This document shows positions 1,454-27,436 of a DNA stretch of 38,859 nucleotides, one piece after another. The number at the start of each line of letters is the position of its first letter. Position 1 is the stretch's first letter. This stretch comes from a virus. Taxonomy: Duplodnaviria > Heunggongvirae > Uroviricota > Caudoviricetes. The stretch lies in the IMG/VR virus record IMGVR_UViG_2563366883_000017; one strand, given 5' to 3'. The position numbers and the translations under genes are program-made. Under the pieces are notes generated by a model. It had not been told where the DNA came from. It saw only the letters and a program-made list of their open reading frames with translations, and made no database searches.

Positions 1454-1552
1454 CGCATCACCTCTGGCAGGCGCCAATGTTAGACTTAAATTGACGCCCG
1501 ATGTTGATTATTAATAATCAGTTATGAAGTTTTAATTTGAATACAATGCAAT

Positions 1553-1753
1553 TCACGAGGACTGAAGTTTCTCGCAATTAAAATTTATCAGTTTTACTTT
1601 CTGCTCTCTGGAAACGCCTGCTTCTTTTTTACCTGAGAGCATTTTTTCGCATTCTGATTTCGTTAGTTTAGATTTTGAATATCTTGTCCAGTTAGTAGGA
1701 GTGCCACCTTCCTTTTCAATAGTGGCGGTAATTTTATACATGAACACCTCCAT
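1553..1753 (-). CDS. ydaC: Small Rac prophage protein YdaC-like (DUF1187)
   Basis: ORF MEVFMYKITATIEKEGG...; start chosen at ATG 1751-1753 rather than the upstream extension, which is the alternate frame of the ralR 3' end. Confidence 0.7.
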   Translation of the reverse strand: MEVFMYKITATIEKEGGTPTNWTRYSKSKLTKSECEKMLSGKKEAGVSREQKVKLINFNCEKLQSS

Positions 1754-1928
1754 TATTATTTCCAGTGGTTCGTTTATTTCATCGTTCGAGTGCTTCTTTT
1801 TCACTTCCACCATAACCGGTTCGGGATTCGCATCCGTTACACTTCGCTCGGTAATATCCTGAAATGGCTTTCACCGTTACTGATGGACAACCACAAAATG
1901 GACATGGTTTAACATTGTCATATCTCAT
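1734..1928 (-). pseudogene. ralR: RalR-like restriction-alleviation protein / type I toxin, frame interrupted by in-frame TGA at 1779-1781 (49 codons, then 14 further in-frame codons to TAA at 1734-1736)
   Basis: Hand translation of minus strand from ATG 1926-1928: MRYDNVKPCPFCGCPSVTVKAISGYYRAKCNGCESRTGYGGSEKEALER-TGA-NKRTTGNNNGGVHV-TAA. The N-terminal Cys-rich sequence matches recalled RalR; the frame stays open after the TGA to a length matching the recalled 64-aa protein. Confidence 0.6.
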
Positions 1929-1983
1929 AATTTTTCTCATAAAAATATTTCAAGTTGGCGGTGCATTACACCGCCAGGCTGAA

Positions 1984-2793
1984 TTATTCCTCTGAATTAT
2001 CGATTACACTGTATTCCCCGGTTAATACAGAGGAATCTGCAGGATCGATTGTCAGTGGTTCCTTTTCATCCATTGATACTGCACGCTGGATCTCAATTGA
2101 TACGGGCAGATATTTGAACAGGCGACGAATAGCCGTTTTCTTTGCCATTTCTTCCCAGTGAGTTACCCACGGCCCGTTATTACCAGCTTTACTCTGGCTG
2201 CGCACCAGCTCAATCTGTTTGCGCGTCATAACTTCAAACTGAGTACCTCCGTCTTTCAGTCTTGCGACAGCATAGACGTGGGTAACAGGGGCATCTTCGT
2301 TTTCTCCTGGGCGGTGTATTAACTTTTCATCAAGGCCAAATTCGAAATTAAACTCGTCACCTTCACGGACAACACGGGCTGACAGGCTGGCGATTTGACC
2401 TGAACGGCGAGCCAGATCAATCATGCCGCGATAGCCAATGATTAGCTGAACGTTTTTTTTACCGCTCTTTTCGTTTTTATTACCAAAAGGCAGTAAATAT
2501 GCATGACCGAGGGCGCTACCGGGCTCAAGTCCGAGCTGTGAACACTGTACGATTGCACTGACAAAACTCATAGTGTCACAGTTTCCTAACGCCGGAACTT
2601 TACGAATTTCTGTGGTGGCGATACGGATCATACGTTCAGCCGTCATATGGCGTGGAAGAGCTGCTGCCAGTTGCTCTTTCATTGATGGCTGGTTAATAAA
2701 ACTAATCACGTCGTTATTTTTAATTGCTGCTGGTGCACGGTTTCCCTGAGTTTTTTGCAGATCGGCTTTTGCGATTGGTGGTTGCTTAGTCAT
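1984..2793 (-). CDS. recT: Recombinase RecT (single-strand annealing protein), 269 aa
   Basis: ORF beginning [16 protein letters not shown]...; immediately downstream of recE with a 2-nt gap; classical recET pair of Rac. Confidence 0.9.
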
Positions 2794-5386
2794 TTGCATA
2801 TTCCTTAGCCCAGCGGGGCAGTGATAACGTCTTAATAGCTGGCCATTCATCGGTATTGAGGCAGTCAGCCAGGGTTCGCAGATTGCGGTGATATTCCAGC
2901 TGACCTGCCAGTTTTGCTTCTTCGCCCATCATGAAAATTTCAACCGGATAACGTCCGCATTCAATAGTTGTGCTGGCAACCAGAAAAACGAAAGTTGGCT
3001 GCACTCCAAACTGTGCTTCATAACCGTCACTGTAGAATGCATCCTGAACGTGATAGCGGTAGTCGTAATAAGCGGTTTTGAATCGTTGAATATCCGCCGT
3101 AGTTTTCACGTCCATGATCCAGTGAAATTCAGGGATAATTTTGTCCGGACGGCACCGACACAAAATTGCTGTTTCAGGATCTTCCCAGTAAATTGATGAT
3201 TCAGCGTGTCCGGCGCTTTCAACAAGCCATTGCCCCAGCGGCAAAGCCATAACGCTCTGATACATGAGTTCAATTTTCCGGCCTTCTTCGGCAGTGATAA
3301 CCGTTTTTCCTGTGCTTGCGCATTCCCTCAGAAACGCTTTCTCTTCTTCTTTTCCGGAGTTTGTCCGGCGGTTAAATTCAGGTGCTACGATAAAGCGGTT
3401 ACTGAATTCTTCCGGCTCAAGTACCCGGCAGTGGAAAGCGGTTCCTAAATCGAGCGTTTTTGTCTTTGTGGTGTCCACGGGGGCATTTTTACGCCACAAA
3501 TACAGTGCCGGAGTATCAGCAATGTCATCGAGCTGAGACTTACTGACACCGGGACCCGCGTGGTAATTCTCATTCGAAATTCCGTAATAAATACCTGGCT
3601 CTATGTCTTCTACGATTACGGGATCTGCGACTTCGCCAGTTTCATCACTGCAATCGCGATGCGGATCGCTGCCAGCATTCTCATTGTGCGGATGTTCAGC
3701 GCCTTCCATTTCCTCCGGATCATTTTCCTTAGCTTCAACCTGACTCTCTTCATCGAATGTTTCCTGGTATGTTGCGTCGCCCATCACCGCACCACAGTCA
3801 GGGCAGTTATCCCCGCCAGTCTGGCCGCAGGCATTGCAGGCTATTTCCGGTTCCTGTTGCACTACTGGCTCAGGTTGATTCATATCCGGGCTGGTTTTTT
3901 CCGTTTCTGGCTGGTTCTGGTACACACAATCGCGAGTCTGGATCCCCTTTACCCATTTCGGATCGTTCGGGTCGCTAATTCCGTCAACAAATTCACCACG
4001 TGATGCAGCAAGCAATTTATCGGCATCGACAGGATTTTTTGATGGAATGTTTTTCCGGGCTTCATGGAGTTCTGCCCGCAGTTCCTGATATTTCGCATCA
4101 ACAGAATTTACCTGTGACTGAGCATCCAGCGGCTGCGTGTCCTGATGATGTTCAGTTGCGTCCGGTTCCATTGTTTCAGCCTCTCCCTGTTCAACTGCCG
4201 TTGTTCCAGATGGTTGCGGTTTTTCTTCATCATCCTGTTTTCCTTCTTCTGTTACTCGCTGCGGCATCGGGGCAGAGGAGCGACCGCAGGCAATATCCAC
4301 GATTTCCGGATCAGGGTTGGCATGATCGGTTTCAGTCAGTACTTTGTTCAGATATTCAGTGACGTGCGCGGGGATGACCTCGATCCCAATTGGTGCTTCT
4401 TTTACGGACGCAACCACGATGGCGCGGGAATAATCCAGCCCGCCAGGCATGGTGATGAATTTGTCGCGGAAAACAGAAAAGGGCGGTTTATTTTCAGCGA
4501 TAATTTCCTCAATGCGTTTAGCGTGTGCCGGATGAAGGTTATAGATGTCCAGATCCATTGAACGGGCCAGTACGCCAGTGGCTACGTCCCGCGCCAGTGA
4601 CGTCAGATCGTGTACGAAACCTTCGCCGCGATCGGTGAGGTTTCCGCCGCCAGCATTAGCACCGGAAGCCGTGCGAGTGATGTGTGAAACACGATTACCC
4701 TTCATCCACTCTTTTGTCAGCAGTCCTCGATCGGTGTAGTCAGCGTTCAGGTATGCTTCGAAAAAAGCAGTTATCAGTCCCAGGTTTGAATTACCAGGAT
4801 TAGGGAAAACTTTGTCAGTGTCACGAACCAGTTTGTGGAGTTCGCGAATTTCCAGCGGGTCGAGCAGGCTGGTTTTGTGGGAAACAGCCAGGGCAGTAAC
4901 AGCCGGTAGTTCTTCAGCCCGAGCAATGTGTAATGCCTGGAGTCCGTCGCGTGAAACGTGCGTTACCGGTTTTTCGCTGCCGTGTTGAGCAAGCCAACGA
5001 ATGGGCAGTTCCTGGCCAGAAATTGGGAGTAGCATATTCTCCTCAATCTCAGTCATGTCTTCGCCGTTGACGTTGGTATTGCCTTGATAGTGAGCGTTGT
5101 CTGGTGCTGCTCCCGGTTTTAGTTCCCATGTCATGGAGTCTTTGCTGAGTTGATAGCGTTCACTCCAGGTAAAATCGATCTCACCTTCAGCGGGCAGGTC
5201 ATTAACGACAGGAAAATTCGTGGCAACAGCTTTAAAATAGCTGCTCAGTTTTTTACCTGACTTAACGATCAGGTAGTCCAGAGTGGCACAGGTCGATTCA
5301 AAATCGTTGCTTGCCCACAGGACGACGTCAGGTTCACCGGATGATTTTTTCGCTTTCCGTAACAGGAAGAGTGGTTTTGTGCTCAT
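2786..5386 (-). CDS. recE: Exonuclease VIII RecE, 866 aa
   Basis: 866-aa ORF directly upstream of recT on the same strand; length and context match Rac RecE. Confidence 0.9.
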
Positions 5387-5487
5387 TGTTTTTTAACCTC
5401 AACTCAGATTAAAATTCGTTTTGTTCAGTGAATGATCTTGCCGGATACACACTGTTCATAGCCTGCGCCATACGCAGGCTATTTCTT

Positions 5488-5763
5488 TCAGATTTCACCT
5501 TTTAATTTCATTGCAATTAGAGTTGCCAGAAATTCGGCTTTTTTTTCTGCGGGCAGATTCTTTCCGATATGCACCAGGCACATTTTTTTGACACCTTCAT
5601 CAAGTGTTTTTACGTTGCCTGATGGACCATCGATATCAACCACAGTGAATGGGGTTTCTTTATTTTCTGTTTTAATTACGTAGCCAATGCGCTTTCCTTC
5701 CAGATTCACCTCGTGAACAATGTCATCGGTAGTTACAACAGTGGCTTCATAATTGGTAATCAT
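5488..5763 (-). CDS. racC: RacC-like small protein, 91 aa
   Basis: ORF MITNYEATVVTTDDIVHEVNLEGKR...; position upstream of recE as in Rac. Confidence 0.75.
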   Translation of the reverse strand: MITNYEATVVTTDDIVHEVNLEGKRIGYVIKTENKETPFTVVDIDGPSGNVKTLDEGVKKMCLVHIGKNLPAEKKAEFLATLIAMKLKGEI

Positions 5764-5837
5764 GTTTTTCTCCTTAATTAAGGTTGAGCGAATACCTGCC
5801 ATTTCTGGCATAAATTCAGTTTCGAATAGTCAATTAA

Positions 5838-6008
5838 TTAAAGTTCATGTGCCATCTGGTCTTTTTCGGCACAAGCTTCACTGCAATATTTTCTCGGTTC
5901 GTCTTTTGATAAAATCCCGTGCATGAAGTGAAGCATTCTTTCAATAGCTTTGCTTTCTTCAACGTCTTTTTTGCAAAGGTGGTAAGCACATTTTATTTTC
6001 TTAGTCAT
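5838..6008 (-). CDS. ydaE: YdaE-like Cys-rich small protein, 56 aa
   Basis: Hand-translated from ATG at 6006-6008 on the minus strand: [56 protein letters not shown]; start overlaps the kilR stop. Confidence 0.7.
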   Translation of the reverse strand: MTKKIKCAYHLCKKDVEESKAIERMLHFMHGILSKDEPRKYCSEACAEKDQMAHEL

Positions 6009-6229
6009 CACCATGACTCCGCCTTTACAGGTAAACCATCACGACCGAGGAAGACTTTAATCATGCGGTCAGTAATGCATGTTTTTGTGGTCAGGTTACG
6101 AATATATAGTTTTCGCTTTTTAATATTGTTTGCCGAGGCAATATATGTCCGGCCTTCATGAAGAACATAATCGCCAGGAGTCACACACTGACGTGGTATT
6201 TCATCAGTTCCGAAGTGATGTGCAATCAT
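6008..6229 (-). CDS. kilR: KilR-like cell-division inhibitor, 73 aa
   Basis: [30 protein letters not shown]...; matches recalled Rac KilR; lies in the leftward early operon. Confidence 0.8.
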
Positions 6230-6670
6230 AATTATCTCCATTTTTACAAATGAACTTTGTTGATGCGGTGCCTGGTGCCTCCAGGTGACTGCAACCAGTT
6301 AACAATTACAGTCGGCTTTCCCACCCAAACCAATAAGGACTAACATGACTTTTAACTGTGCCACGTGCGCTTAGCCGCATTCACCGCATCACAAAATTCA
6401 CTTTAAAAAGGGCGGACATCAGCCGAACTTCAAGAAAAAAACTGATGCCGCCAGGACTACACACAGCAATGTCGTTATTTACAACCGGAGGCGCACTCCC
6501 ACCATTTAAATTTAACAGACAAGACCGACTCTTTATGGATATCGGAAATGCGCCTTCGTGTTGTGCCCGGTTTTATTTCACCACCTCCGGGCTTCGGTGG
6601 TCTCGGCTATACCCCTACAGCGAGAGCTTGTGTTAACATTTCAATACCCTTACAGTTGAGAGTTATTGAT

Positions 6671-7159
6671 ATGTTGGATGTATTTACTCCATTGTTGAAA
6701 CTTTTTGCTAACGAGCCACTCGAAATACTTATGTATACGATTATCATTTTTGGTCTCACTCTCTGGCTGATACCGAAAGAGTTTACTGTCGCATTCAATG
6801 CTTATACTGAAATACCTTGGCTCTTTCAGATTATCGTTTTTGCCTTTTCTTTCGTGGTCGCCATTTCCTTCTCAAGATTGCGAGCACATATTCAAAAGCA
6901 TTATTCATTACTACCAGAGCAACGAGTATTGCTTCGTTTATCTGAGAAAGAAATCGCTGTATTTAAAGATTTCCTTAAAACAGGAAATCTTATTATCACT
7001 TCTCCTTGCCGTAACCCGGTTATGAAAAAATTAGAACGGAAGGGCATCATTCAACATCAGAGTGATAGCGCAAACTGTTCTTATTATCTCGTCACCGAAA
7101 AATACTCCCATTTTATGAAGTTATTCTGGAACAGCAGGAGTAGACGTTTTAATCGTTAG
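6671..7159 (+). CDS. sieB: Superinfection exclusion protein SieB-like, 162 aa, membrane protein
   Basis: ATG at 6671 (MLDVFTPLLKLFANEPLEILMYTIIIFGLTLWLIP...); hydrophobic N-terminal segments; orientation opposite to the surrounding early-left genes, as in Rac. Confidence 0.8.
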   Translation: MLDVFTPLLKLFANEPLEILMYTIIIFGLTLWLIPKEFTVAFNAYTEIPWLFQIIVFAFSFVVAISFSRLRAHIQKHYSLLPEQRVLLRLSEKEIAVFKDFLKTGNLIITSPCRNPVMKKLERKGIIQHQSDSANCSYYLVTEKYSHFMKLFWNSRSRRFNR

Positions 7160-7311
7160 CTTACTGTGTGCTTCTCCAACCATCGGCGCGCACCAGTTTC
7201 GGTTTTAAATGTTTTGCTTTTGGTATACGTCATGGCAGTGAACGTTCCATCCTGGTTGGGGAACACGCCGCACACCAGGGATTCGTTGTTGCCGAGGTCG
7301 ATTTTTTGCAT
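7156..7311 (-). CDS. ydaF: Small Rac protein YdaF-like, 51 aa
   Basis: Hand-translated: MQKIDLGNNESLVCGVFPNQDGTFTAMTYTKSKTFKTETGARRWLEKHTVS; its 3' end overlaps the sieB 3' end by 4 nt (convergent). Confidence 0.6.
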   Translation of the reverse strand: MQKIDLGNNESLVCGVFPNQDGTFTAMTYTKSKTFKTETGARRWLEKHTVS

Positions 7312-7321
7312 TTTGCGAATC

Positions 7322-7456
7322 TCACATCTTGTTGCTGTGTATAGCGACTTCTGCCTGCCAGAGATCCCAGTCGTTGCTGCGTAAAGCCTGCACAGCCTGG
7401 TTGTAAGTGATACCGCAACAATCCATCAAATACTGAACTACTTCGTAATGCACCAT
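7322..7456 (-). CDS. ydaG: Small Rac protein YdaG-like, 44 aa
   Basis: ORF MVHYEVVQYLMDCCGITYNQAVQALRSNDWDLWQAEVAIHSNKM; first gene of the leftward early transcript next to the repressor region. Confidence 0.6.
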   Translation of the reverse strand: MVHYEVVQYLMDCCGITYNQAVQALRSNDWDLWQAEVAIHSNKM

Positions 7457-7624
7457 CTTATCTCTCCCCTTAACGCCGGGTGGCGGAACTGAAACCTGCT
7501 GCACTGCAAAATCTGAACCCTGCCGTCATGTTCATACGCCTCGGGCTGGCTACTTAACCCCTGACCACTGCCTGGTAACTCGAAGTATTGCCCTGCGTTC
7601 TGTGGGGCGGGGTGGGTTGGTAGG

Positions 7625-7675
7625 TATATAATGTACTTTGTGTTCATTGATGTAAAGTACTTTAAGTACATTTTG
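7625..7675. promoter_or_regulatory. Left operator/promoter-like region: three copies of ATGTACT / AAGTACT / AGTACAT and a TATAAT hexamer
   Basis: Direct reading: taggTATATAATGTACTttgtg...taAAGTACTTtAAGTACATttt; the same ATGTACT core recurs on the other side of racR (8191, 8215). Confidence 0.4.
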
Positions 7676-7746
7676 TGTGTAAAAAAATGAGATGGGATAA
7701 AGTGAAGCACAAACCCGGAGGGGGACGCTACCGGATTTATGCTGGT

Positions 7747-8166
7747 TTAAGAGGCTTTTTGTTTTTTCTTTCGTGCTAGCTCTTCGTAAATTGCATTGTA
7801 CTTCTGTTTTTTCTCCTCAAGAGTTTTTAAAAGTTCATCTGTCTCACTGTCAGGGAGCTCGTCCAGAAGGTCAATGATGATTTTTTGTCTTGGATTTAAC
7901 TCCTGATAGAAACGTACCTGTCCACTTTCTTCTGTATCCTCTCCCAAAAGATAGGTTGGTGTTGTTCCAATGAGTGTTGCTAATTCCCTTAATTTCTCTC
8001 GGCGAGGAATTGTTTCGCCATTAAACCATTTGCTAACCGCTTTTGGTGTTAATTTCATTCGACGGGCAATTTCTGCCTGCCTTCCATGTTGTTCATAACC
8101 AGCGTTTTCACAGGCTAGCGCAAGCCTACTGGCGAACTCTTTACGCGCTTTATCTTCATGAACCAT
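7747..8166 (-). CDS. racR: Prophage repressor, XRE-family helix-turn-helix, 139 aa
   Basis: ORF MVHEDKARKEFASRLALACENAGYEQHGRQAEIARRMKLTPKAVSKWFNGE... (HTH); divergent from the cro-like ydaS; flanked by repeated operator-like motifs. Confidence 0.8.
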   Translation of the reverse strand: MVHEDKARKEFASRLALACENAGYEQHGRQAEIARRMKLTPKAVSKWFNGETIPRREKLRELATLIGTTPTYLLGEDTEESGQVRFYQELNPRQKIIIDLLDELPDSETDELLKTLEEKKQKYNAIYEELARKKKQKAS

Positions 8167-8187
8167 AAGTTCAATGATATTCGCTCT

Positions 8188-8224
8188 TGAATGTACTGTC
8201 AGTTCTGTTATAGCATGTACTCAA
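8188..8224. promoter_or_regulatory. Right operator-like direct repeats ATGTACT (8191-8197, 8215-8221) in the racR-ydaS divergent intergenic region
   Basis: Direct reading: gaATGTACTgtcagttctgttatagcATGTACTcaaagttcacat; 24-bp spacing; between divergent repressor and cro-like genes. Confidence 0.45.
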
Positions 8225-8245
8225 AGTTCACATTGTGAGGGTGAT

Positions 8246-8500
8246 ATGAACCAGAAAACACTTGAAGATGTAATCAAAACTGTTCGCGTTTCTGTTGTGG
8301 CCGACGTTTGTGGTGTCAGCCAAAGAGCAATCTACAAATGGATGGATAACGGAAAATTGCCTCGCACAGAATATACCGGCGAAACAAATTACGCTGAAAA
8401 AATCGCTCATGCATCAAACGGATTATTTTCTGCTGATGTAATTTTAACTATTGGCAGAAATAAAACTACTACGAAAAAGCTGATGGGAGTTGATTCATGA
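8246..8500 (+). CDS. ydaS: Cro-like / YdaS-like small DNA-binding protein
   Basis: ATG at 8246 (MNQKTLEDVIKTVRVSVVADVCGVSQRAIYKWMDNGKLP..., HTH-like); divergent from racR; stop overlaps ydaT start (ATGA). Confidence 0.7.
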   Translation: MNQKTLEDVIKTVRVSVVADVCGVSQRAIYKWMDNGKLPRTEYTGETNYAEKIAHASNGLFSADVILTIGRNKTTTKKLMGVDS

Positions 8501-8919
8501 AAATCAAGCATGAGCACATCGAGTCAGTGTTGTTAGCCCTGGCAGCCGAAAAAGGGCAGGCATGGGTAGCCAATGCCATTACTGAAGAATATCTGCGCCA
8601 GGGGGGCGGCGAATTGCCCCTGGTACCAGGCAAGGACTGGAATAATCAGCAGAATATCTATCACCGTTGGTTGAAAGGTGAAACGAAAACGCAAAGAGAA
8701 AAAATTCAGAAGCTGATCCCAGCAATTCTGGCAATCCTTCCGCGCGAGCTGCGTCACCGACTCTGCATCTTCGATACCCTGGAACGCCGTGCATTACTGG
8801 CGGCGCAGGAAGCGTTAAGTACGGCAATTGATGCGCATGATGATGCAGTCCAAGCCGTTTACCGGAAAGCGCATTTCAGCGGCGGCGGGTCTTCCGACGA
8901 TTCTGTCATTGTTCATTAA
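8497..8919 (+). CDS. ydaT: YdaT-like protein, 140 aa
   Basis: ORF MKIKHEHIESVLLALAAEKGQAWVANAITEEYL...; translationally coupled to ydaS. Confidence 0.7.
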   Translation: MKIKHEHIESVLLALAAEKGQAWVANAITEEYLRQGGGELPLVPGKDWNNQQNIYHRWLKGETKTQREKIQKLIPAILAILPRELRHRLCIFDTLERRALLAAQEALSTAIDAHDDAVQAVYRKAHFSGGGSSDDSVIVH

Positions 8920-8931
8920 GCAAAAGTTTCC

Positions 8932-9789
8932 ATGCTGTTTGTGCTTATTCTAAGCCACCGGGCAGCATCATACGGGGCAATTATGGCCGCATTACCATAC
9001 ATGCAACTGTACATAGCTGATTACCTGGCTGACACCATGCATTTGTCAGCAGAGGAGCATGGTGCGTATTTGTTGCTGATGTTCAATTACTGGCAAACAG
9101 GAAAGCCAATACCTAAAAACAGGCTGGCAAAAATTGCCCGTCTGACTAACGAGCGATGGGCTGATGTTGAACCATCCTTGCAGGAGTTTTTTTGCGATAA
9201 CGGCGAGGAATGGGTGCATCTTCGGATTGAGGAAGATCTGGCATCAGTCAGGGAAAAATTAACCAAAAAATCAGCCGCAGGAAAAGCATCTGTTCAGGCC
9301 AGAAGAAGCAGAAAGGAAGCAGATGTTCAAACAAAACAAGAGAGAAATTTAACAGGTGTTCAAACAGATGTTGAAGTGGTGTTTGAACATGATGTCAACA
9401 CAAAGGCAACTAATAAAGATACAGATAAAGATCTAAAAACAGGTCCCCCCCTAAATCCCCCCCGGGGGAATCGAGGTGTCAAAAAGTTTGACCCTCTGGA
9501 TATTGCTTTGCCGAACTGGATTTCTGTCTCGCTTTGGCGTGAGTGGGTTGAATTTCGCCAGGCATTGCGAAAACCGATTCGAACGGAGCAGGGCGCTAAC
9601 GGGGCGATACGGGAGCTGGAAAAATTCCGCCAGCAGGGTTTTTCACCTGAGCAGGTGATTCGACACAGCATCGCCAATGAATACCAGGGCTTGTTCGCGC
9701 CGAAAGGTGTTCGACCTGAGACGTTACTCCGACAGGTTAACACCGTCTCGTTACCGGATAGTGCGATCCCGCCAGGCTTCAGGGGGTAA
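8932..9789 (+). CDS. ydaU: Replication initiation protein YdaU-like (DUF1376), 285 aa
   Basis: 285-aa ORF directly upstream of the DnaC-like gene; position equivalent to lambda O. Confidence 0.7.
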   Translation: MLFVLILSHRAASYGAIMAALPYMQLYIADYLADTMHLSAEEHGAYLLLMFNYWQTGKPIPKNRLAKIARLTNERWADVEPSLQEFFCDNGEEWVHLRIEEDLASVREKLTKKSAAGKASVQARRSRKEADVQTKQERNLTGVQTDVEVVFEHDVNTKATNKDTDKDLKTGPPLNPPRGNRGVKKFDPLDIALPNWISVSLWREWVEFRQALRKPIRTEQGANGAIRELEKFRQQGFSPEQVIRHSIANEYQGLFAPKGVRPETLLRQVNTVSLPDSAIPPGFRG

Positions 9790-9795
9790 CTGACC

Positions 9796-18430: not shown

Positions 18431-18962
18431 GGGCTGGTTTATTGTATGCCAAATGATTATTAAAAAGGTTGTGTTAATAACAAAATCCGAAATAATATGC
18501 CTGCATATTTTTATCTTGCTTATATTCTGCATATTGTGCATAGCAGGCTCATCCCTGCAATCAAAACTGTATGATGAGTATTTTTTGTTTTCCTTTTTTC
18601 CAGTCATCTGATGATGACCTGCTTCTTTTTAATCCGGATCGACATCAGTTTTTTAAGATAATTCCTGCGAGTTATATGCATAAATGCCACAAACTCCGCA
18701 TTTTATGTGGTTGGGAGTTGCCGGGCGCGCAGTGAGTTTGCTAAGAAAACTCCTGCATGGTGAATCCCCCTGTGCGGTGGGGTGATACCATTAACCTTTT
18801 CTGTCGCCGACAGGTATCACGAACATTTTGTTCACCGGGAGGCACCCGGCACCATGCACTTCAATAGATTCTCTCCACATTATGGATATTCTTTCAGAAT
18901 ATCCCACGCAGACTTTGTGTAAATGTTAACAAATGTGCGTTTTATTTGATCTGATTCGCTGT

Positions 18963-18992
18963 TTGAGCGTCCAAAACAACGGTATATATAAT
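18963..18992 (+). promoter_or_regulatory. Sigma70-like promoter upstream of the first TolA-like lipoprotein gene
   Basis: TTGAGC (18963-18968), 18-bp spacer, TATAAT (18987-18992); GAGGA SD before ATG 19022. Confidence 0.45.
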
Positions 18993-19021
18993 CCTTTACT
19001 ATATGACATATGTGAGGAAAA

Positions 19022-19450
19022 ATGGGTTTTCGTAGCGCATCAATTCTTACGTTGATTATTAGTGGGATTATTATCGGGTGCACTGATGCTGTATCGACAA
19101 ATTATCATGACCGTACATCATATTACTCCGATAAAGCAATAGAGACACAGTATGTGAGTTCATCTGAACGTACTTCTGATGTTAGTGAGGATATCCGTCT
19201 GTATGCCCATCAAATCAAGAGCGCCATCGAAAAACAGTTCGGGGATGCGAGTAAGTATTCAGGAAAAGAGTGTACACTGAGAATGCATATGGCCCCGAAT
19301 GGCCTTCTACTGGAGGTTAAAAGAGAAAGTGGAGACCTCGATTTATGTCGTGAAGCGATGAATGCGATAAAGAATGCTGATATACCTGCCCCCCCTTCGC
19401 CGGAAGTATATAAAGTATTTCAAAATGGGGTGCTGGATTTTAAACCCTGA
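19022..19450 (+). CDS. Lipoprotein with TolA C-terminal (domain III)-like domain, 142 aa
   Basis: N-terminal signal peptide with lipobox IIGC; C-terminal region YAHQIKSAIEKQFGDASKYSGKECTLRMHMAPNGLLLEVKRESGDLDLCREAMNAIKNADIPAPPSPEVYKVFQNGVLDFKP closely parallels the recalled E. coli TolA C-terminus (…CTLRIKLAPDGMLLDIKPEGGDPALCQAALAAAKLAKIPKPPSQAVYEVFKNAPLDFKP). Confidence 0.7.
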   Translation: MGFRSASILTLIISGIIIGCTDAVSTNYHDRTSYYSDKAIETQYVSSSERTSDVSEDIRLYAHQIKSAIEKQFGDASKYSGKECTLRMHMAPNGLLLEVKRESGDLDLCREAMNAIKNADIPAPPSPEVYKVFQNGVLDFKP

Positions 19451-19600
19451 TATTTATTGTTTTGTAATAAACGGTTTCGGCTTAGGTTTGTTCTGACACA
19501 GCTACGGCACTGAGCTAAATTTAGCGGATAGTCAGCTCTGAGCCAGTGGCGGACGTAACAACTACTATTGCTGAGATTTTAATGGATTGAGGAGCAAGAA

Positions 19601-19996
19601 GTGGGATTAAAGAAAATCGTTATGTTGACTTTTTGGGTCGGTTTTGTTGCGGGATGCACACCTTTACACCCTTCAGATTGCCACAAAACTACTGCTACAG
19701 GTAGTTGCAGTTCAGGACGCTGGGATGATCAGGATGAATGGGGGGCGCAAGCGCGGGGAATCAGAGCTGCAATTAATGCCAAACTTGATGAGCCGCATAA
19801 CTGGAAAGGGAAAAAATGCAGGTTGCATATGGAATTCTCTCAGGATGGCACGGCGTTAAAAATATCTACCAGTAACGGTGATAAAGCCTATTGCGAAGCG
19901 ATAAAGTCCGCAGCTCATAAAGCCAAATTTCCGGCCTTCAACAATCCGGAAGTCTACAGAGATTTTCAGAAATCTGGCTTTGACATGCGAGGTTAG
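19601..19996 (+). CDS. Second, more divergent TolA domain-III-like lipoprotein, 131 aa
   Basis: GTG start with GAGGAG upstream; signal peptide plus lipobox VAGC; C-terminal half keeps the two-Cys pattern and the PEVY-x-x-FQ motif of the first paralog (KKCRLHMEFSQDGTALKISTSNGDKAYCEAIKSAAHKAKFPAFNNPEVYRDFQKSGFD). Confidence 0.6.
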   Translation: MGLKKIVMLTFWVGFVAGCTPLHPSDCHKTTATGSCSSGRWDDQDEWGAQARGIRAAINAKLDEPHNWKGKKCRLHMEFSQDGTALKISTSNGDKAYCEAIKSAAHKAKFPAFNNPEVYRDFQKSGFDMRG

Positions 19997-20122
19997 CTCT
20001 TCAATTACTATATCTCATTCATAGCAAACTGACAGATTTGATGATGTTCTATATACGAAACCTGTGATGTCAAGTCTGAGCTAATACAAATAAACATAAT
20101 ATCAGAGAAATACATTTTATTA

Positions 20123-20146
20123 GCTCGCTACGGCGAGCTTTTTATA
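20123..20146 (+). terminator. Intrinsic terminator after the lipoprotein pair
   Basis: AGCTCGC-tacg-GCGAGCT followed by TTTTAT. Confidence 0.6.
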
Positions 20147-20247
20147 TTGCATCGTCTCCAGCATATATATCAATTAAGGCTCTGATTGATGTGTCTGAAA
20201 GCCTACACATAATAACTATGCCATCCGTTCCGTGCGGAGGTGAGGCT

Positions 20248-20463
20248 ATGAAATCCATGGACAAAATTTCAACAGGCATTGCCTACGGCACCTCCGCAGG
20301 CAGTGCTGGCTACTGGTTTTTACAGTTGCTCGATAGAGTAACTCCGTCACAGTGGGCTGCAATCGGTGTGCTGGGTAGTCTGGTATTTGGCCTGCTGACG
20401 TACCTGACAAACCTTTATTTCAAGATTAAAGAAGATAAGCGCAAGGCTGCGAGAGGTGAATAA
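20248..20463 (+). CDS. Class II holin (phage 21 S-like pinholin), 71 aa with dual start (MKSMDK)
   Basis: [71 protein letters not shown]; two TM segments and a charged C-terminus; stop overlaps the endolysin start (TAATG). Confidence 0.85.
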
Positions 20464-20960
20464 TGCCTCCATCATTACGAAAAGTCGTTGCTGCTGCTAT
20501 TGGTGGCGGAGCAATTGCTATAGCATCAGTGTTAATCACTGGCCCAAGTGGTAACGATGGTCTGGAAGGTGTCAGCTACATACCATACAAAGATATTGTT
20601 GGTGTATGGACTGTATGTCACGGGCATACAGGAAAAGACATCATGCTCGGTAAAACGTATACCAAAGCAGAATGCAAAACACTCTTGAATAAAGACCTTG
20701 CCACTGTCGCCAGACAAATTAACCCGTACATCAAAGTCGATATACCGGAAACAACGCGCGGCGCTCTTTACTCATTCGTTTACAACGTGGGTGCTGGCAA
20801 TTTCAGAACATCGACGCTTCTTCGCAAAATAAACCAGGGCGATATCAAAGGCGCATGTGATCAGCTACGTCGCTGGACATATGCTGGCGGTAAGCAATGG
20901 AAAGGTCTCATGACTCGTCGTGAGATTGAGCGTGAAATCTGTTTGTGGGGTCAGCAATGA
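20463..20960 (+). CDS. SAR endolysin (phage 21 R-like lysozyme), 165 aa
   Basis: N-terminal signal-anchor-release-like hydrophobic segment ([20 protein letters not shown]) followed by a lysozyme domain; second gene of the lysis cassette. Confidence 0.85.
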
Positions 20961-21421
20961 ACAGAGTAACCGCGATTATCTCCGCTCTGGTTATCTGCAT
21001 CATCGTCTGCCTGTCATGGGCTGTTAATCATTACCGTGATAACGCCATTACCTACAAAGCCCAGCGCGACAAAAATGCCAGAGAACTGAAGCTGGCGAAC
21101 GCGGCAATTACTGACATGCAGATGCGTCAGCGTGATGTTGCTGCGCTCGATGCAAAATACACGAAGGAGTTAGCTGATGCTAAAGCTGAAAATGATGCTC
21201 TGCGTGATGATGTTGCCGCTGGTCGTCGTCGGTTGCACATCAAAGCAGTCTGTCAGTCAGTGCGTGAAGCCACCACCGCCTCCGGCGTGGATAATGCAGC
21301 CTCCCCCCGACTGGCAGACACCGCTGAACGGGATTATTTCACCCTCCGGGAACGACTGGTAATGATGCAGGCCCAACTTGAAGGTGCTCAGCAATACATA
21401 ACCGAGCAGTGTTTAAAGTAA
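20957..21421 (+). CDS. Rz-like spanin (i-spanin), about 154 aa
   Basis: ATG 20957 overlapping the endolysin stop; N-terminal TM then coiled-coil-like sequence; contains an embedded +1-frame lipoprotein gene. Confidence 0.8.
21177..21362 (+). CDS. Rz1-like o-spanin lipoprotein embedded in Rz (+1 frame), 61 aa
   Basis: AAGGAG SD before ATG 21177; signal peptide with lipobox VVGC; proline-rich mature region (PPPPPAW...PPPDW). Confidence 0.8.
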
Positions 21422-21558
21422 AATCTTAACTACAATATGATTCATTTTGATGATTGTTTCATAAGGAACAGTGAAGTAAGATCTAAGAGGAGTTAAATTT
21501 TATACAGTATAATCATAATATTGCAGCAAGGTGGTTATAATTGAAAGAATATTTAGAT

Positions 21559-23016
21559 ATGAATACATCTCATGTAAGAGTTGTTACTCATATGTGTGGG
21601 TTCCTGGTTTGGCTCTATAGTCTTTCAATGTTGCCACCAATGGTTGTAGCATTGTTTTATAAAGAAAAAAGCCTGTTCGTTTTCTTTATAACTTTCGTTA
21701 TATTTTTTTGCATTGGTGGCGGAGCGTGGTATACAACTAAGAAATCTGGCATTCAATTACGTACCCGTGATGGGTTTATTATAATTGTAATGTTTTGGAT
21801 TTTGTTTTCTGTTATTAGTGCATTCCCTTTATGGATTGACTCAGAACTTAATTTAACGTTCATTGATGCTCTGTTTGAAGGGGTTTCTGGAATAACAACA
21901 ACAGGAGCAACTGTAATTGATGATGTTAGTTCATTACCTCGGGCATATTTGTACTATCGGTCACAGTTAAATTTTATAGGTGGTTTAGGAGTTATTGTTC
22001 TGGCGGTTGCAGTATTGCCATTATTGGGTATTGGTGGTGCAAAGCTTTATCAGTCAGAAATGCCGGGGCCATTTAAGGATGACAAACTCACTCCCCGCCT
22101 GGCCGATACGTCACGGACACTGTGGATAACTTATTCTTTATTAGGTATTGCTTGTATTGTCTGTTATAGACTTGCAGGAATGCCTTTGTTTGATGCTATT
22201 TGTCACGGGATTTCCACAGTTTCGCTTGGTGGTTTCTCAACTCATAGCGAGAGTATCGGATATTTTAATAACTATTTGGTTGAGCTGGTGGCTGGTTCTT
22301 TTTCCCTGCTATCGGCTTTCAACTTCACTCTTTGGTATATTGTTATTAGCAGAAAAACGATAAAACCTTTAATCAGAGATATTGAACTTCGTTTCTTTCT
22401 GTTAATAGCCTTAGGGGTGATCATTGTTACCTCTTTCCAGGTCTGGCATATAGGTATGTATGACTTGCATGGAAGTTTTATTCATTCGTTTTTTCTTGCC
22501 AGCTCCATGCTCACTGATAATGGTTTAGCTACGCAGGATTATGCAAACTGGCCCACGCACACGATAGTGTTTTTGCTGTTGTCAAGTTTCTTTGGGGGAT
22601 GTATAGGTTCAACCTGTGGTGGAATTAAGTCACTTCGATTTCTTATACTTTTCAAACAAAGCAAACACGAGATAAATCAGCTTTCTCATCCCAGAGCGTT
22701 GTTGAGTGTAAATGTAGGAGGGAAGATAGTTACAGATCGTGTAATGAGGTCTGTATGGAGTTTCTTTTTTCTTTATACTCTCTTCACGGTGTTTTTTATA
22801 CTGGTGTTAAATGGTATGGGATATGATTTTCTTACATCATTTGCAACAGTGGCTGCATGTATTAATAATATGGGATTAGGTTTTGGGGCTACTGCATCGT
22901 CATTCGGAGTGCTTAATGACATTGCAAAATATTTAATGTGCATAGCTATGATTCTTGGTCGCCTTGAAATTTATCCTGTTATTATATTGTTTTCAGGTTT
23001 TTTTTGGCGCTCCTAA
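21559..23016 (+). CDS. trkG: Trk-system potassium uptake protein TrkG, 485 aa, AT-rich moron
   Basis: ATG 21559 (MNTSHVRVVTHMCGFLVWLYSL...); multi-TM protein; strongly AT-rich compared with flanks; a known Rac cargo gene. Confidence 0.9.
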   Translation: MNTSHVRVVTHMCGFLVWLYSLSMLPPMVVALFYKEKSLFVFFITFVIFFCIGGGAWYTTKKSGIQLRTRDGFIIIVMFWILFSVISAFPLWIDSELNLTFIDALFEGVSGITTTGATVIDDVSSLPRAYLYYRSQLNFIGGLGVIVLAVAVLPLLGIGGAKLYQSEMPGPFKDDKLTPRLADTSRTLWITYSLLGIACIVCYRLAGMPLFDAICHGISTVSLGGFSTHSESIGYFNNYLVELVAGSFSLLSAFNFTLWYIVISRKTIKPLIRDIELRFFLLIALGVIIVTSFQVWHIGMYDLHGSFIHSFFLASSMLTDNGLATQDYANWPTHTIVFLLLSSFFGGCIGSTCGGIKSLRFLILFKQSKHEINQLSHPRALLSVNVGGKIVTDRVMRSVWSFFFLYTLFTVFFILVLNGMGYDFLTSFATVAACINNMGLGFGATASSFGVLNDIAKYLMCIAMILGRLEIYPVIILFSGFFWRS

Positions 23017-23153
23017 TATATGGCTGATTTATAATTGTGAGTTTAATATTATGTTGACTCGCTCATTGATCCAATACCTAACTTTACCAGCAACACCTCC
23101 GCCCCCAGTAGCACTGGCTGCTGGGGTGCGTTTTATTCATAAAGCAAGGCTGT

Positions 23154-23942
23154 ATGAGCGAGAAATTAAAGATAGTCTATCGCCCATTACAAGAATTGTC
23201 ACCGTATGCGCACAACGCCAGGACGCACAGTACTGAGCAGGTGGCACAACTGGTAGAAAGTATTAAGCAATTCGGCTGGACTAATCCGGTGCTGATTGAC
23301 GAAAAGGGCGAAATTATTGCGGGTCACGGTCGTGTTATGGCGGCTGAAATGCTCAAAATGGATTCTGTTCCGGTCATTGTTCTGTCTGGCCTGACGGATG
23401 AGCAGAAAAAGGCGTACCGCCTGGCAGATAATCGCCTGCCGATGAATGCTGGCTGGGATGAAGATCTGTTGCGGATGGAGCTGTCGGACCTAATCAATGC
23501 TGATTTTGATGTCTCCCTGACAGGCTTCATCCCGGCAGAAATTGATGAACTGTTGACGGATGTTTTGCCCGGTACAGGAAATGAGGAGGAGCCGTATACG
23601 ACGAAAATTGATACGCCTGTTTATGAGCCGTCAGGCGGTAAACCGGATATCAGTGAACTGTACGACGATACGAAAACTCAGGAGCTGATCAGCCGGATAC
23701 GTTCGGCGTCCCTTGATCCTGATATTGAGAAATTCCTCCTGTGTGCAGCAGAACGTCACACGGTGTTTAATTTCAGCAGAATTGCGGACTATTACGCTCA
23801 TGCCCCCGCTGAAATTCAGTGCCTTTTCGAGGAGTCGGCGCTGGTGATCATTGATTATCAGCAGGCTATTGAAAATGGATTTGTCCGAATGACGCAGCGC
23901 ATGGTGGAGATCATGCATGGCGGGGAGGAGGAATATGCGTGA
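23154..23942 (+). CDS. ParB-like nuclease domain protein, 262 aa
   Basis: N-terminal ParB/Srx-like region (…PVLIDEKGEIIAGHGRVMAAEM…YRLADNRL…); possibly the full-length version of a gene that is truncated in K-12 Rac (ynaK, recalled with low certainty). Confidence 0.6.
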   Translation: MSEKLKIVYRPLQELSPYAHNARTHSTEQVAQLVESIKQFGWTNPVLIDEKGEIIAGHGRVMAAEMLKMDSVPVIVLSGLTDEQKKAYRLADNRLPMNAGWDEDLLRMELSDLINADFDVSLTGFIPAEIDELLTDVLPGTGNEEEPYTTKIDTPVYEPSGGKPDISELYDDTKTQELISRIRSASLDPDIEKFLLCAAERHTVFNFSRIADYYAHAPAEIQCLFEESALVIIDYQQAIENGFVRMTQRMVEIMHGGEEEYA

Positions 23943-24867
23943 TGATTTTTGCGCCTTTATTCTGACTCACGGGCGACCGGACAAAGTTCTGACTTACCGG
24001 ACGTTGCGTCGTGCTGGCTATACCGGGAAAATTTTTATCGTTGTTGATGATGAAGATAAGACACGGCATCAGTACATGGCTGAATTTGGTGAACAGGTGC
24101 TGGTATTTTCCAAAGCCGATATTGCTAGTCGTTTTGACGAAGCCGATAATTTTAGTGACCGCCGCTCAATTTTTTACGCCCGTAATGCCTGTTTCGACCA
24201 GGCAAAACTGGTCGGGTGTAAATACTTCATTCAGCTCGATGATGATTATCACGAGTTCCAGTTTCGGGTGGATCGCAACTATGACCAGGCCTATTTCCCG
24301 ATAAGGAAACTGGATGAGATCCTTTCTGAAATGCTTGCGTACTACGAATCAATACCTGCTCTTTCCATCGCTATGTCGCAGGGCGGGGATTTTCTTGGTG
24401 ACAATGGCGGCCATGCTTCGTGGGTGAAACGCAAGGCAATGAACAGCTTTATCTGTTCGGTTGATCGACCGTTCTCATTCATGGGGCGCATTAACGAGGA
24501 TGTGAATACGTACACGAATCTCGGTCGCTGTGGTGAATTGTTTATGACGATCGGTGCTGTCCAGTTAGGGCAGAAACAGACGCAGAAAAACAGCGGCGGA
24601 ATGACCGAGCTGTATCTGGATTCCGGAACCTACGTTAAAAGTTTTTACTCCGTCATGTATGCGCCGTCGTGCGTAAAAATCTCACTTATGGGTGCCAGTC
24701 ATAAACGCATTCACCATCAGGTCACCTGGAACAACGCTGCAGTAAAAATCCTTCACGAAAAATACAGGAAGAAGACACCCTGCATATCAATGGGGGTGAC
24801 AAATGATTCCGTATTCGAAAGTCGAGTCTCTGGCAGCGTGCCGGATGACTGCACAACAAATCGCTGA
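23935..24867 (+). CDS. Hypothetical protein, possible GT-A-like glycosyltransferase fold, about 310 aa
   Basis: GGAGGAGG SD before ATG 23935, overlapping ParB-like stop; by-eye motifs ILTHGRPDK and QLDDDYHEF resemble the N-terminal and DxD motifs of family-2 glycosyltransferases (weak evidence). Confidence 0.4.
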   Translation: MRDDFCAFILTHGRPDKVLTYRTLRRAGYTGKIFIVVDDEDKTRHQYMAEFGEQVLVFSKADIASRFDEADNFSDRRSIFYARNACFDQAKLVGCKYFIQLDDDYHEFQFRVDRNYDQAYFPIRKLDEILSEMLAYYESIPALSIAMSQGGDFLGDNGGHASWVKRKAMNSFICSVDRPFSFMGRINEDVNTYTNLGRCGELFMTIGAVQLGQKQTQKNSGGMTELYLDSGTYVKSFYSVMYAPSCVKISLMGASHKRIHHQVTWNNAAVKILHEKYRKKTPCISMGVTNDSVFESRVSGSVPDDCTTNR

Positions 24868-25054
24868 CGTTCTGGATGTTGATCTGAACCGACTGAAAGA
24901 AAATCGGGAAGCAATGACAGATTTTTATGCGGCCATCCGTAAGGGCAGAGCGAAAGGTGAAGCCGAGTTACGAGCGGCATTGTTTAAGCTTGCCAGAAAA
25001 GGGGATGCCTTTGCTCTGCGCGAACTACTCAGGGTGGATAAAAATCAGGACTAA
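24803..25054 (+). CDS. Small hypothetical protein, 83 aa, possibly HTH-containing
   Basis: ORF with SD GGGGGTGA before ATG 24803; immediately upstream of small terminase. Confidence 0.4.
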   Translation: MIPYSKVESLAACRMTAQQIADVLDVDLNRLKENREAMTDFYAAIRKGRAKGEAELRAALFKLARKGDAFALRELLRVDKNQD

Positions 25055-25057
25055 CTG

Positions 25058-26152
25058 ATGAGCAGACCGGACTGGGGGGCGTTGCAGCAGGAGTATATTG
25101 CTGAATACACCCGCTCCGGTATATCTCCGGTGGCATGGTGTGAAGCAAGGGGACTGAATTACGCAACAGCCCGTCGTTACATCAAAAAAACTCCGAAAAA
25201 TGCGCAGACAGAAATGTGCAAAACTGCGCAAAAAAGTGCGCAGAAAAAATCTGCGCAGACTGCACAAAAGCGGAACGAAAAATCTCAGGAAAAAAAGCCA
25301 GTATTCGATGCGGGCCTGAATGAGGGCGACGCGGAGGAATTTTCGTTCTGTCCCGATGAATTCGGCATTTCTGACCAGCAGGCTAAGTTTGCGATGCTTG
25401 TTGCTCAGGGTAAAAAGCCGACAGAGGCGTACCGACTAGCCGGTTATGAGGGGCAAGGTGCGACAGCTAACAGCAACGCCAGTCGTATGCTTAGAAATGC
25501 CAGGGTTTTTCGCGCTATCAGCTACTTCCGCAATCAGTACCAGAAACGCTATACCGCAGACCTGGATTTACTAGTGAGTCAGTTGATGGCTATTGTCCTG
25601 GCCGACCCCAATCAGCTTGCACAATTTCGCCGTGTTAACTGCCGTTATTGCTGGGGCGAGAATCATCTCTACCAGTGGCGCGATATAGCAGAATTCGACA
25701 AGGCAGCGGCGCAGGCTTCCAGAGATGGCAAACCCGAACCGGAATATGGAGGCCTCGGCTTTGTTGATAACGCCATACCCAATCCGGACTGCCCGAAGTG
25801 CTGCGGTGAGGGAACGGGACAGCTTTATATGGCTGATACCACTCTGCTTGATGGGGATGCGCGGCAATTATATGCAGGGGCAAAATTCGGAAAATTCGGC
25901 GTTGAGATCCTGCTGGAGGATAAGGCTGCCGCCCGGCGTGAATTGTTGCGTTTGTTTTCTGCTGGCGGGGCTTTATGTGCAGATAAGCGGCTACAGGAAC
26001 TGGAAATTGAACGGCGCAGAATGGAAAACCAGAAGCTGCGCAAAGAGATCGAAACGGTGGAAGATAATGAACATCCCCAGCCTGTGGCGATCAATATTAA
26101 TGTGGTTGATGCCAGAGTAAGGAGTGATGAAGATGATCTCTCCGACGCTTAA
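25058..26152 (+). CDS. Terminase small subunit (HTH N-terminus plus Terminase_2-like region), 364 aa
   Basis: N-terminal HTH (…GISPVAWCEARGLNYATARRYIKK…) and a central region typical of small terminases (…QQAKFAMLVAQGKKPTEAYRLAGYEGQGATANSNASRMLRNARV…); directly upstream of the large terminase. Confidence 0.6.
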   Translation: MSRPDWGALQQEYIAEYTRSGISPVAWCEARGLNYATARRYIKKTPKNAQTEMCKTAQKSAQKKSAQTAQKRNEKSQEKKPVFDAGLNEGDAEEFSFCPDEFGISDQQAKFAMLVAQGKKPTEAYRLAGYEGQGATANSNASRMLRNARVFRAISYFRNQYQKRYTADLDLLVSQLMAIVLADPNQLAQFRRVNCRYCWGENHLYQWRDIAEFDKAAAQASRDGKPEPEYGGLGFVDNAIPNPDCPKCCGEGTGQLYMADTTLLDGDARQLYAGAKFGKFGVEILLEDKAAARRELLRLFSAGGALCADKRLQELEIERRRMENQKLRKEIETVEDNEHPQPVAININVVDARVRSDEDDLSDA

Positions 26153-27434
26153 TGTGCCTCAGGCGCGATTTCTTTCAATGCCCCATAAATTTAAAGCCTA
26201 TATTGCTGGTTTTGGCTCGGGCAAAACATGGGTTGGGTGTGGCGGCATATGCAAGGGGATTTGGGAGCATCCAGGTATAAATCAGGGATATTTTGCGCCA
26301 ACGTATCCCCAAATTCGCGATATTTTTTACCCTACAGTGGAAGAAGTTGCTGCTGACTGGGGATTGAACGTAAAAATTAATGAGGGAAATAAAGAGGTTC
26401 ACTTTTATTACGGACGCCAGTATCGGGGAACCACTATCTGCAGATCGATGGAGAAGCCACAAACGATCGTCGGTTTCAAAATTGGTAATGCGTTGGTGGA
26501 TGAACTGGACATTTTGCCGAAGGAAAAAGCCAGAACGGCGTGGCGCAAGATAATTGCACGTATGCGTTATAAGATTGATGGACTTCGCAACGGTATTGAC
26601 GTTACAACCACGCCGGAAGGATTCAAATTTGTCTACGAGCAGTTTGTTAAAGCCGTGCGTGAAAAAACAGAGCTGGCCTCACTGTATGGTCTGGTGCAGG
26701 CATCTACTTTCGATAATGAAAAGAACCTGCCAGCAGATTACATTCCTTCGCTTCTTGAATCATACCCTCCAGAGCTGATTAAAGCCTATCTTCGAGGACA
26801 GTTTACTAACCTGACAAGTGGTACTGTTTACCATCAGTTTGACCGGAAACTGAATAATTGCGAAGAAGTGGAGCAGCCAGGGGAGCCGATTTATATTGGG
26901 ATGGATTTTAACGTTGGAAAGATGGCGGGAATCGTCCATGTGCTGCGTTTGGGGCTTCCATGTGCGGTAACTGAAATCATCAATGCCTACGATACGCCGG
27001 ATATGATCCGCATCATTAAAGAACGCTTCTGGCTGTATGATGGGAATGATTACCGGAAAGTGAGGGAAATTTATATTTATCCAGATGCTTCCGGGGATTC
27101 CAGAAAATCAAGTAACGCAAGTACGACGGATATAGCCCAGCTTAAGTAGGCTGGTTTTAACGTTGTGGTGAACAGCTCGAACCCGCCAGTAAAAGATCGC
27201 GTTAACTCAATGAATGCAATGTTCTGCAATGCCAATGGTGAGCGTCGCTATAAAGTTAATGTGAAGCGTTGCCCGTTATATGCCGAATCTCTGGAGCAAC
27301 AGGTCTGGGATGAGAAGGGGGAGCCTGATAAAAAATCTGGCAATGATCACCCGAATGATGCCGGAGGTTATTTCATCGTTAAGCAATTCCCTATTGTCAA
27401 ACCGACCGGAAGAGTCACATCACTTCGGATTTAA
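26127..27434 (+). pseudogene. Terminase large subunit interrupted by an in-frame amber codon (TAG 27147-27149); N-part 26127..27149, C-part continues in the same frame to 27434
   Basis: Walker A GFGSGKTW near the N-terminus; the 341-aa ORF and the following 89-aa ORF are in the same frame, separated only by TAG plus 5 codons; combined length about 435 aa is typical of a large terminase. Confidence 0.7.
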
Positions 27435-27436
27435 TT

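Follow-up and report, generated by a model that had tools for sequence, protein, structure and literature searches.

The window analysed here, a stretch of 38,859 nucleotides recorded as the tailed-phage entry IMGVR_UViG_2563366883_000017, carries a large terminase subunit gene (terL) whose reading frame is broken once by an amber codon, and this raises the question of what such a stop is doing in the middle of a packaging gene. An earlier note on this DNA had offered three answers: an inactivating nonsense mutation in a decaying prophage, a sequencing error, or a site read through in an amber-suppressing background. As described below, the first of these was supported, the second was rejected and the third found no support. 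We consider it highly probable (around 0.9) that the stop arose by a single C-to-T change and that it belongs to a set of several lesions inactivating a grounded Rac-type prophage remnant that is inherited vertically, with terL as a pseudogene.

The window opens with an integrase gene (1-1236, minus strand) and closes with a gene for tail-fibre assembly (38275-38859); it contains early genes of the recE, kil and sieB types, trkG, genes for lysis and a late operon. Translation of 26127-27434 gave 340 sense codons, one stop and 94 further sense codons up to the TAA at 27432-27434, so the frame reported in the earlier note was recovered as such. In the mechanical list of ORFs, it appears as two separate entries, 26124-27149 (341 aa, from a GTG start) and 27165-27434 (89 aa). 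With the start placed at the ATG at 26133, equivalent to that used in RefSeq relatives, the TAG at 27147-27149 corresponds to codon 339 of 433. The packaging region is organized as follows:

25058-26152, plus strand: small terminase subunit gene, 364 aa, intact, overlapping the start of terL (Pfam Terminase_2, E 3.7e-8; annotated as "terminase small subunit" in relatives)
26133-27146, plus strand: 5' fragment of terL, 338 codons, with the ATPase domain (Pfam Terminase_6N; Walker A motif GFGSGKT) followed by the nuclease domain up to about its midpoint
27147-27149, plus strand: amber codon TAG, which replaced CAG (Gln339) through a C-to-T transition at 27147, according to the comparison with E. 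coli 7/2, complete genomes and homologues
27150-27434, plus strand: 3' remnant of terL, 94 codons plus TAA, which supply the conserved second half of the nuclease domain with its invariant D405-H406-x-N408-D409 (Pfam Terminase_6C; invariant columns of the alignment)
27437-28843, plus strand: portal-like gene, intact (Pfam DUF4055, E 5.6e-45)

The position of terL between the small terminase and portal genes is the same in annotated relatives. The small terminase itself is unusually long (364 aa); Terminase_2 covers only residues 122-321 and leaves an N-terminal extension of about 120 aa without an assigned family.

The identification of the Walker A-containing ORF as a large terminase was confirmed by Pfam searches. 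When the frame was read through the stop (435 aa from the ATG at 26127), the product matched Terminase_6N at residues 26-240 (E 3.7e-33) and Terminase_6C at residues 257-419 (E 3.4e-10), the latter match spanning the stop. The 338-aa fragment alone retained the Terminase_6N match (E 1.9e-33) but gave no Pfam match to Terminase_6C, whereas the 89-aa remnant alone matched positions 87-154 of the 155 in the Terminase_6C profile (E 2.8e-6), which shows that the downstream frame is the rest of terL and not a chance ORF. Therefore, the packaging ATPase domain with its Walker A motif is present, whereas a complete RNase-H-like nuclease domain in a single polypeptide is obtained only on read-through. 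Judging from these profile matches, the stop is located in the middle of the nuclease domain and not at a domain boundary.

A search of the PDB by sequence found no match for the restored protein or for a profile of 21 aligned homologues, and matches were obtained only at the fold level. The best PDB matches of an AlphaFold model were large terminases, among them TerL of phage D6E (E about 6e-7), and its superposition on the nuclease domain of P22 TerL (4dkw_A) gave a TM score of 0.64 on the target over 200 alignment columns. The nuclease core is modelled with pLDDT values of 74-92 over residues 241-350 approximately, except for one low block at 321-330, whereas the modelled ATPase domain cannot be relied on (mean pLDDT of 52). 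According to this model, the stop falls at the end of a helix (331-339), and the truncated product would lack a short strand (343-344) and a C-terminal helix (405-418) that includes the invariant DHxND motif. Invariant positions beyond residue 339 in the 21-sequence alignment include, among others, N350-K354, N361-N366, R371-Y373, L387-Q390, G396-K400, D405, H406, N408, D409, G412 and Y413. In enzymes of the Terminase_6 type, the RNase-H fold carries three acidic metal ligands at dispersed positions, the last one near the C-terminus. The truncation should abolish DNA cleavage and hence the packaging function, as half of the nuclease fold is missing, including the invariant D405, H406, N408 and D409.

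The ancestral state of codon 339 was established by comparison with intact alleles. Along 1601 bases (26000-27600), the sole difference with respect to E. coli 7/2 is a T in place of C at 27147, which changes CAG (Gln) to TAG; CAG is also present in NCTC10444 and in the GenBank phage record ON470614. The region was found in 791 of 5,426 complete E. coli genomes, with a best identity of 99.9%, and is annotated there as an uninterrupted terminase; ten "phage" records of GenBank contain it as well. A query of 81 bases with the TAG at its centre matched 750 of the same 5,426 genomes, none of them at 100% identity, and the exact 40-mer with the TAG gave no match among IMG/VR viral contigs. The lesion is, then, missing from near-identical relatives. 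The restored protein of 433 aa belongs, as an exact match, to a cluster of 1,912 sequences, and its exact sequence was found on at least 1000 contigs, compared to 107 contigs with the exact 338-aa product, which makes the TAG allele a minority variant.

More distant homologues showed the same picture. Those from Klebsiella, Serratia, Providencia, Dickeya, Kosakonia, Sodalis and other genera have 433-436 aa without interruption. Comparison with orthologues, proposed in the earlier note as a way to identify the expected residue, returned a sense codon: position 339 is Q, E or D in the alignment of 21 homologues, and the stop is not conserved among orthologues. These data also bear on a programmed read-through or recoding of the stop as a native property of this terminase family. 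Such recoding would account for the open downstream frame, and for nothing more; the absence of the TAG-containing 81-mer from all the complete genomes and the sense codons of the homologues speak against it, and the flanks are identical to those of the CAG alleles and therefore hold no dedicated recoding signal, so we regard its probability as practically negligible. Regarding the origin of the transition, the mutated C lies outside any CCWGG Dcm site (flanks AAGCAGGCT), and a methylation hotspot does not explain it.

A sequencing or assembly error would also leave one base different from hundreds of genomes that are the same in all other respects, in which case the true base would be C and the gene would be intact. 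However, the exact truncated product was found on the 107 contigs mentioned above, which come from NCBI isolates, ENA metagenomes and Logan assemblies; the carriers include GCA_013051205.1, GCA_045885195.1, GCA_008041775.1, GCA_000351025.1 and GCA_900499585.1, as well as several human-gut metagenome assemblies. Moreover, a base-by-base comparison of 14 TAG loci, which come from independent samples of isolates and gut metagenomes, showed in all of them a terL identical to that of the window, the T included, and ten of these loci belong to several distinguishable haplotypes, with 0-14 sites different from the window over the surrounding 20.4 kb. One of the loci (L009, scaffold KB732454.1 of GCA_000351025.1) is 100% identical to the window along 16133-37149, including an insertion sequence described below, and probably represents the origin of the window or a clone-mate of that origin. 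Because so many contigs share the allele and independent loci carry it on backgrounds that differ elsewhere, an error was dismissed as exceedingly unlikely. The amber allele is real and inherited.

In addition to the amber codon, other inactivating lesions were found in essential genes of the same element, among the features mapped from the capsid gene to the end of the window:

30907-31446, plus strand: truncated major capsid gene of the P22 type, with the deletion mapped against the NCTC10444 locus (L013) and its annotation
36026-36574, plus strand: minor tail protein L gene, broken by an insertion sequence (Pfam Phage_tail_L, profile positions 1-148 of 206)
36551-37865, minus strand: insertion sequence of 1,315 bp with a transposase of the Mutator/IS256 type (36585-37793, minus strand; Pfam Transposase_mut, E 1.2e-118)
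37866-38274, plus strand: remainder of the L fragment in fusion with the 3' end of a tail-fibre gene, from the homology between loci L004 and L013 and the L013 annotation
38275-38859, plus strand: tail-fibre assembly gene (tfa), at the end of the window (Pfam Caudo_TAP, E 3.8e-44)

The closest intact relative, NCTC10444, shares 99.9% identity with the window, whose segments 14865-31389 and 31388-36550 align to positions 1501-18026 and 21352-26515 of L013, respectively. The sequence missing between them (L013 18027-21351) corresponds to a deletion of 3,325 bp with its junction at 31388-31390, which takes away the distal two-thirds of the capsid gene, four genes for head completion and tail termination, and almost the whole tail-tube gene. 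Just past this junction, a private deletion of 1 bp within a run of A (31422) shortens the truncated capsid ORF from 190 to 179 aa. Among the loci compared base by base, only L009 has this deletion in common with the window; another locus (L023), in which the same 179-aa ORF was called, probably carries it too.

A second deletion, of about 8.5 kb, has its junction near 37943-37947 and removed the end of L, the genes K, I, J and lom, and most of stf. Homology between L004 and L013 ends at 26588 and restarts at 35066, and the right half of the junction matches tail-fibre genes. Neither the capsid-deletion junction nor that between L and the tail-fibre gene was found in any of the 5,426 complete genomes, and the former was also absent from JGI metagenomes, so these collections hold no intermediate that would order the lesions. 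All the TAG loci inspected showed the same truncated capsid gene, and all those that reach far enough showed the same fusion of L to the tail-fibre gene or its form interrupted by the insertion sequence.

The insertion sequence in gene L is flanked by an 8-bp target duplication (GCACCTGG), and in the loci free of it, position 36550 is joined to 37866 with an overlap of 8 bp. In a metagenome locus (L003, at about 20318), the same insertion sequence was found in the same orientation around 100 bp further upstream, which could be the consequence of either a second insertion or a deletion adjacent to the element.

Putting these data together, the following explanation can be proposed for the prophage remnant. 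A spontaneous C-to-T change at 27147 would have converted Gln339 from CAG to amber in one E. coli lineage carrying a Rac-type lambdoid prophage. Translation would stop inside the RNase-H-like nuclease domain, keeping the ATPase domain and losing the C-terminal half of the nuclease fold, and the truncated TerL, from the known domain organization of Terminase_6-type enzymes, is predicted to be unable to cut concatemeric DNA for headful packaging. The same prophage has also lost most of the capsid gene as well as the head-completion, tail-terminator, tail-tube, K, I, J and tail-fibre genes, and the copy in the window additionally has the insertion sequence in gene L and the private 1-bp deletion. 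That a nonsense mutation lies here in a decaying prophage, as one of the alternatives in the earlier note had it, is supported by the single C-to-T change relative to intact relatives and by the presence in the same element of large deletions in structural genes and an insertion sequence.

A different outcome would be expected if the stop were suppressed, either by an amber suppressor of the host or by low-level read-through by a near-cognate tRNA-Gln, since some full-length TerL of wild-type sequence would then be made. A Gln-inserting amber suppressor of the supE/glnV type would reverse a CAG to TAG change exactly and restore the wild-type protein, and the 94 codons downstream of the stop are still the same as in the intact allele. 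Nevertheless, the latter observation is uninformative, because the lineage has only around 16 independent variable sites in 20.4 kb, of which about one would be expected in terL. Furthermore, ARAGORN detected 0 tRNA genes in the window, and thus no suppressor tRNA encoded within the element, and the carriers are wild isolates and gut metagenome contigs rather than laboratory suppressor strains. Six further genes of the element also end, as is normal for them, in TAG, on which account a genome-wide reassignment of this codon was discarded too. Even if produced, a full-length TerL would find no capsid to fill, and read-through is moot for phage production because the capsid, tail-tube, J and tail-fibre genes are deleted. 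With these data and the sense codon of the orthologues, an amber-suppressing background found no support, and suppression of the stop seems very improbable.

Lesions in terL were not restricted to the lineage of the window. Six loci from other E. coli lineages with the same prophage (L014, L015, L016, L018, L019 and L020) showed independent lesions in this gene: a large deletion that fuses the region of the upstream TAGT gene to the 3' end of terL, the loss of 13 bp at 27156-27168, an inserted IS66 near 27028 and 1-bp indels, although some of the single-base indels in long-read NCTC assemblies may be errors. In these lineages, codon 339 is CAG wherever the site is present. Similarly, truncated members of the terL cluster end at varied positions through independent lesions.

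These observations are relevant for the last alternative, namely that the split gene is functional or exapted, with the 338-aa ATPase fragment, with or without a separately translated remnant of 74-89 aa, kept for the benefit of the host, for example by blocking packaging by related superinfecting phages. The allele does persist in a lineage that is diversifying, and no further mutations in terL were found in the 14 loci; however, zero extra mutations fits chance, with a probability of about 0.37 as estimated from the approximately 16 independent sites in 20.4 kb. The break lies within a single RNase-H-like fold and not between domains, and no Shine-Dalgarno-like sequence is visible upstream of the GTG at 27165 or the ATG at 27210 from which the remnant could be translated. 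In addition, nearly every one of the best 120 homologues is a single protein with a length of 433-436 aa, and neither among them nor in the 21-sequence alignment was any orthologue found to be split at the site of codon 339, so a natural end at this point followed by a separate C-terminal protein, which the earlier note had named as a finding that would overturn its reading, did not appear. The truncated product has no match in PADLOC, and terL is broken at quite different places in the other lineages, which resembles random decay. Overall, we consider a functional split or exaptation highly unlikely. The same very low probability is given to the more specific speculation that the truncated TerL is kept as a dominant-negative or decoy protein against incoming Rac-type phages, or that rare near-cognate Gln read-through yields traces of wild-type terminase usable by other elements.

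With terL regarded as a pseudogene of a decaying remnant, its relation to known systems can be described at three levels. By descent, it is a member of the Terminase_6-type large terminases (PF03237 and PF17289), the headful-packaging class of T4 gp17, P22 gp2 and Sf6 gp2, with which it shares a Walker A-bearing ATPase domain at the N-terminus, an RNase-H-like nuclease domain at the C-terminus and a locus between the small terminase and portal genes; unlike them, it has a frame interrupted at codon 339, within the nuclease part. At the level of the whole element, the intact Rac-type prophages of E. coli (7/2, NCTC10444 and ON470614) show 99.5-99.9% DNA identity to the window over the late region and the same gene order (trkG, ParB-like, TAGT, small terminase, terL, portal), but they have CAG at this codon and full capsid, tail-tube, K, I, J and stf genes, whereas the window has the amber codon, two deletions, the insertion sequence and the 1-bp deletion. 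The record ON470614 ("vB_EcoS-666R9") corresponds to a prophage predicted from the genome of a clinical isolate (bioRxiv 10.1101/2022.06.29.498070). Finally, the window resembles Rac of E. coli K-12, a prophage of the cryptic type, in being a vertically inherited remnant with nonsense, deletion and insertion sequence lesions in virion genes, although it presumably retains more late genes than the K-12 element. Lesions of these classes in virion genes are a well-known pattern of cryptic prophages, and the finding is real but ordinary, of a kind already known.

In practical terms, terL should be flagged here as a pseudogene and the prophage scored as defective. Judging from its gene content, the element is unable to produce either capsids or tails, and the cutting of DNA for packaging is probably lost as well. 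The amber codon together with the two private deletion junctions makes a clean, datable marker for one E. coli lineage, and the locus adds one more example of the recurrent, independent decay of the same prophage gene across lineages.

Some genes elsewhere in the window deserve mention in their own right. Between the replication and Q regions, three consecutive ORFs of 363, 415 and 227 aa (11779-14781, plus strand), without Pfam matches, correspond to the consecutive PADLOC models PDLC03004-03006, "Hp1/Hp2/Hp3" (E 5e-41, 1e-10 and 4e-11, respectively), and may constitute a candidate cassette for defence against phages that travels as cargo of the prophage. Adjoining the small terminase gene on its upstream side (23154-24867, plus strand), a gene for a protein with a ParB N-terminal domain overlaps that of a TET-associated glycosyltransferase (PF20691 TAGT, E 4e-34). 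A PADLOC model for type II methyltransferases also matches the ParB-domain protein, through the N-terminal portion of the model (E 1.5e-38). The intact relatives retain the pair, which may be a module for DNA modification. In addition, the intervals 19022-19996 and 21541-23016 (both plus strand) hold further prophage cargo, consisting of two ORFs that encode TolA C-terminal domains and precede the lysis cassette, and of trkG, encoding a potassium transporter, between the lysis and packaging genes.
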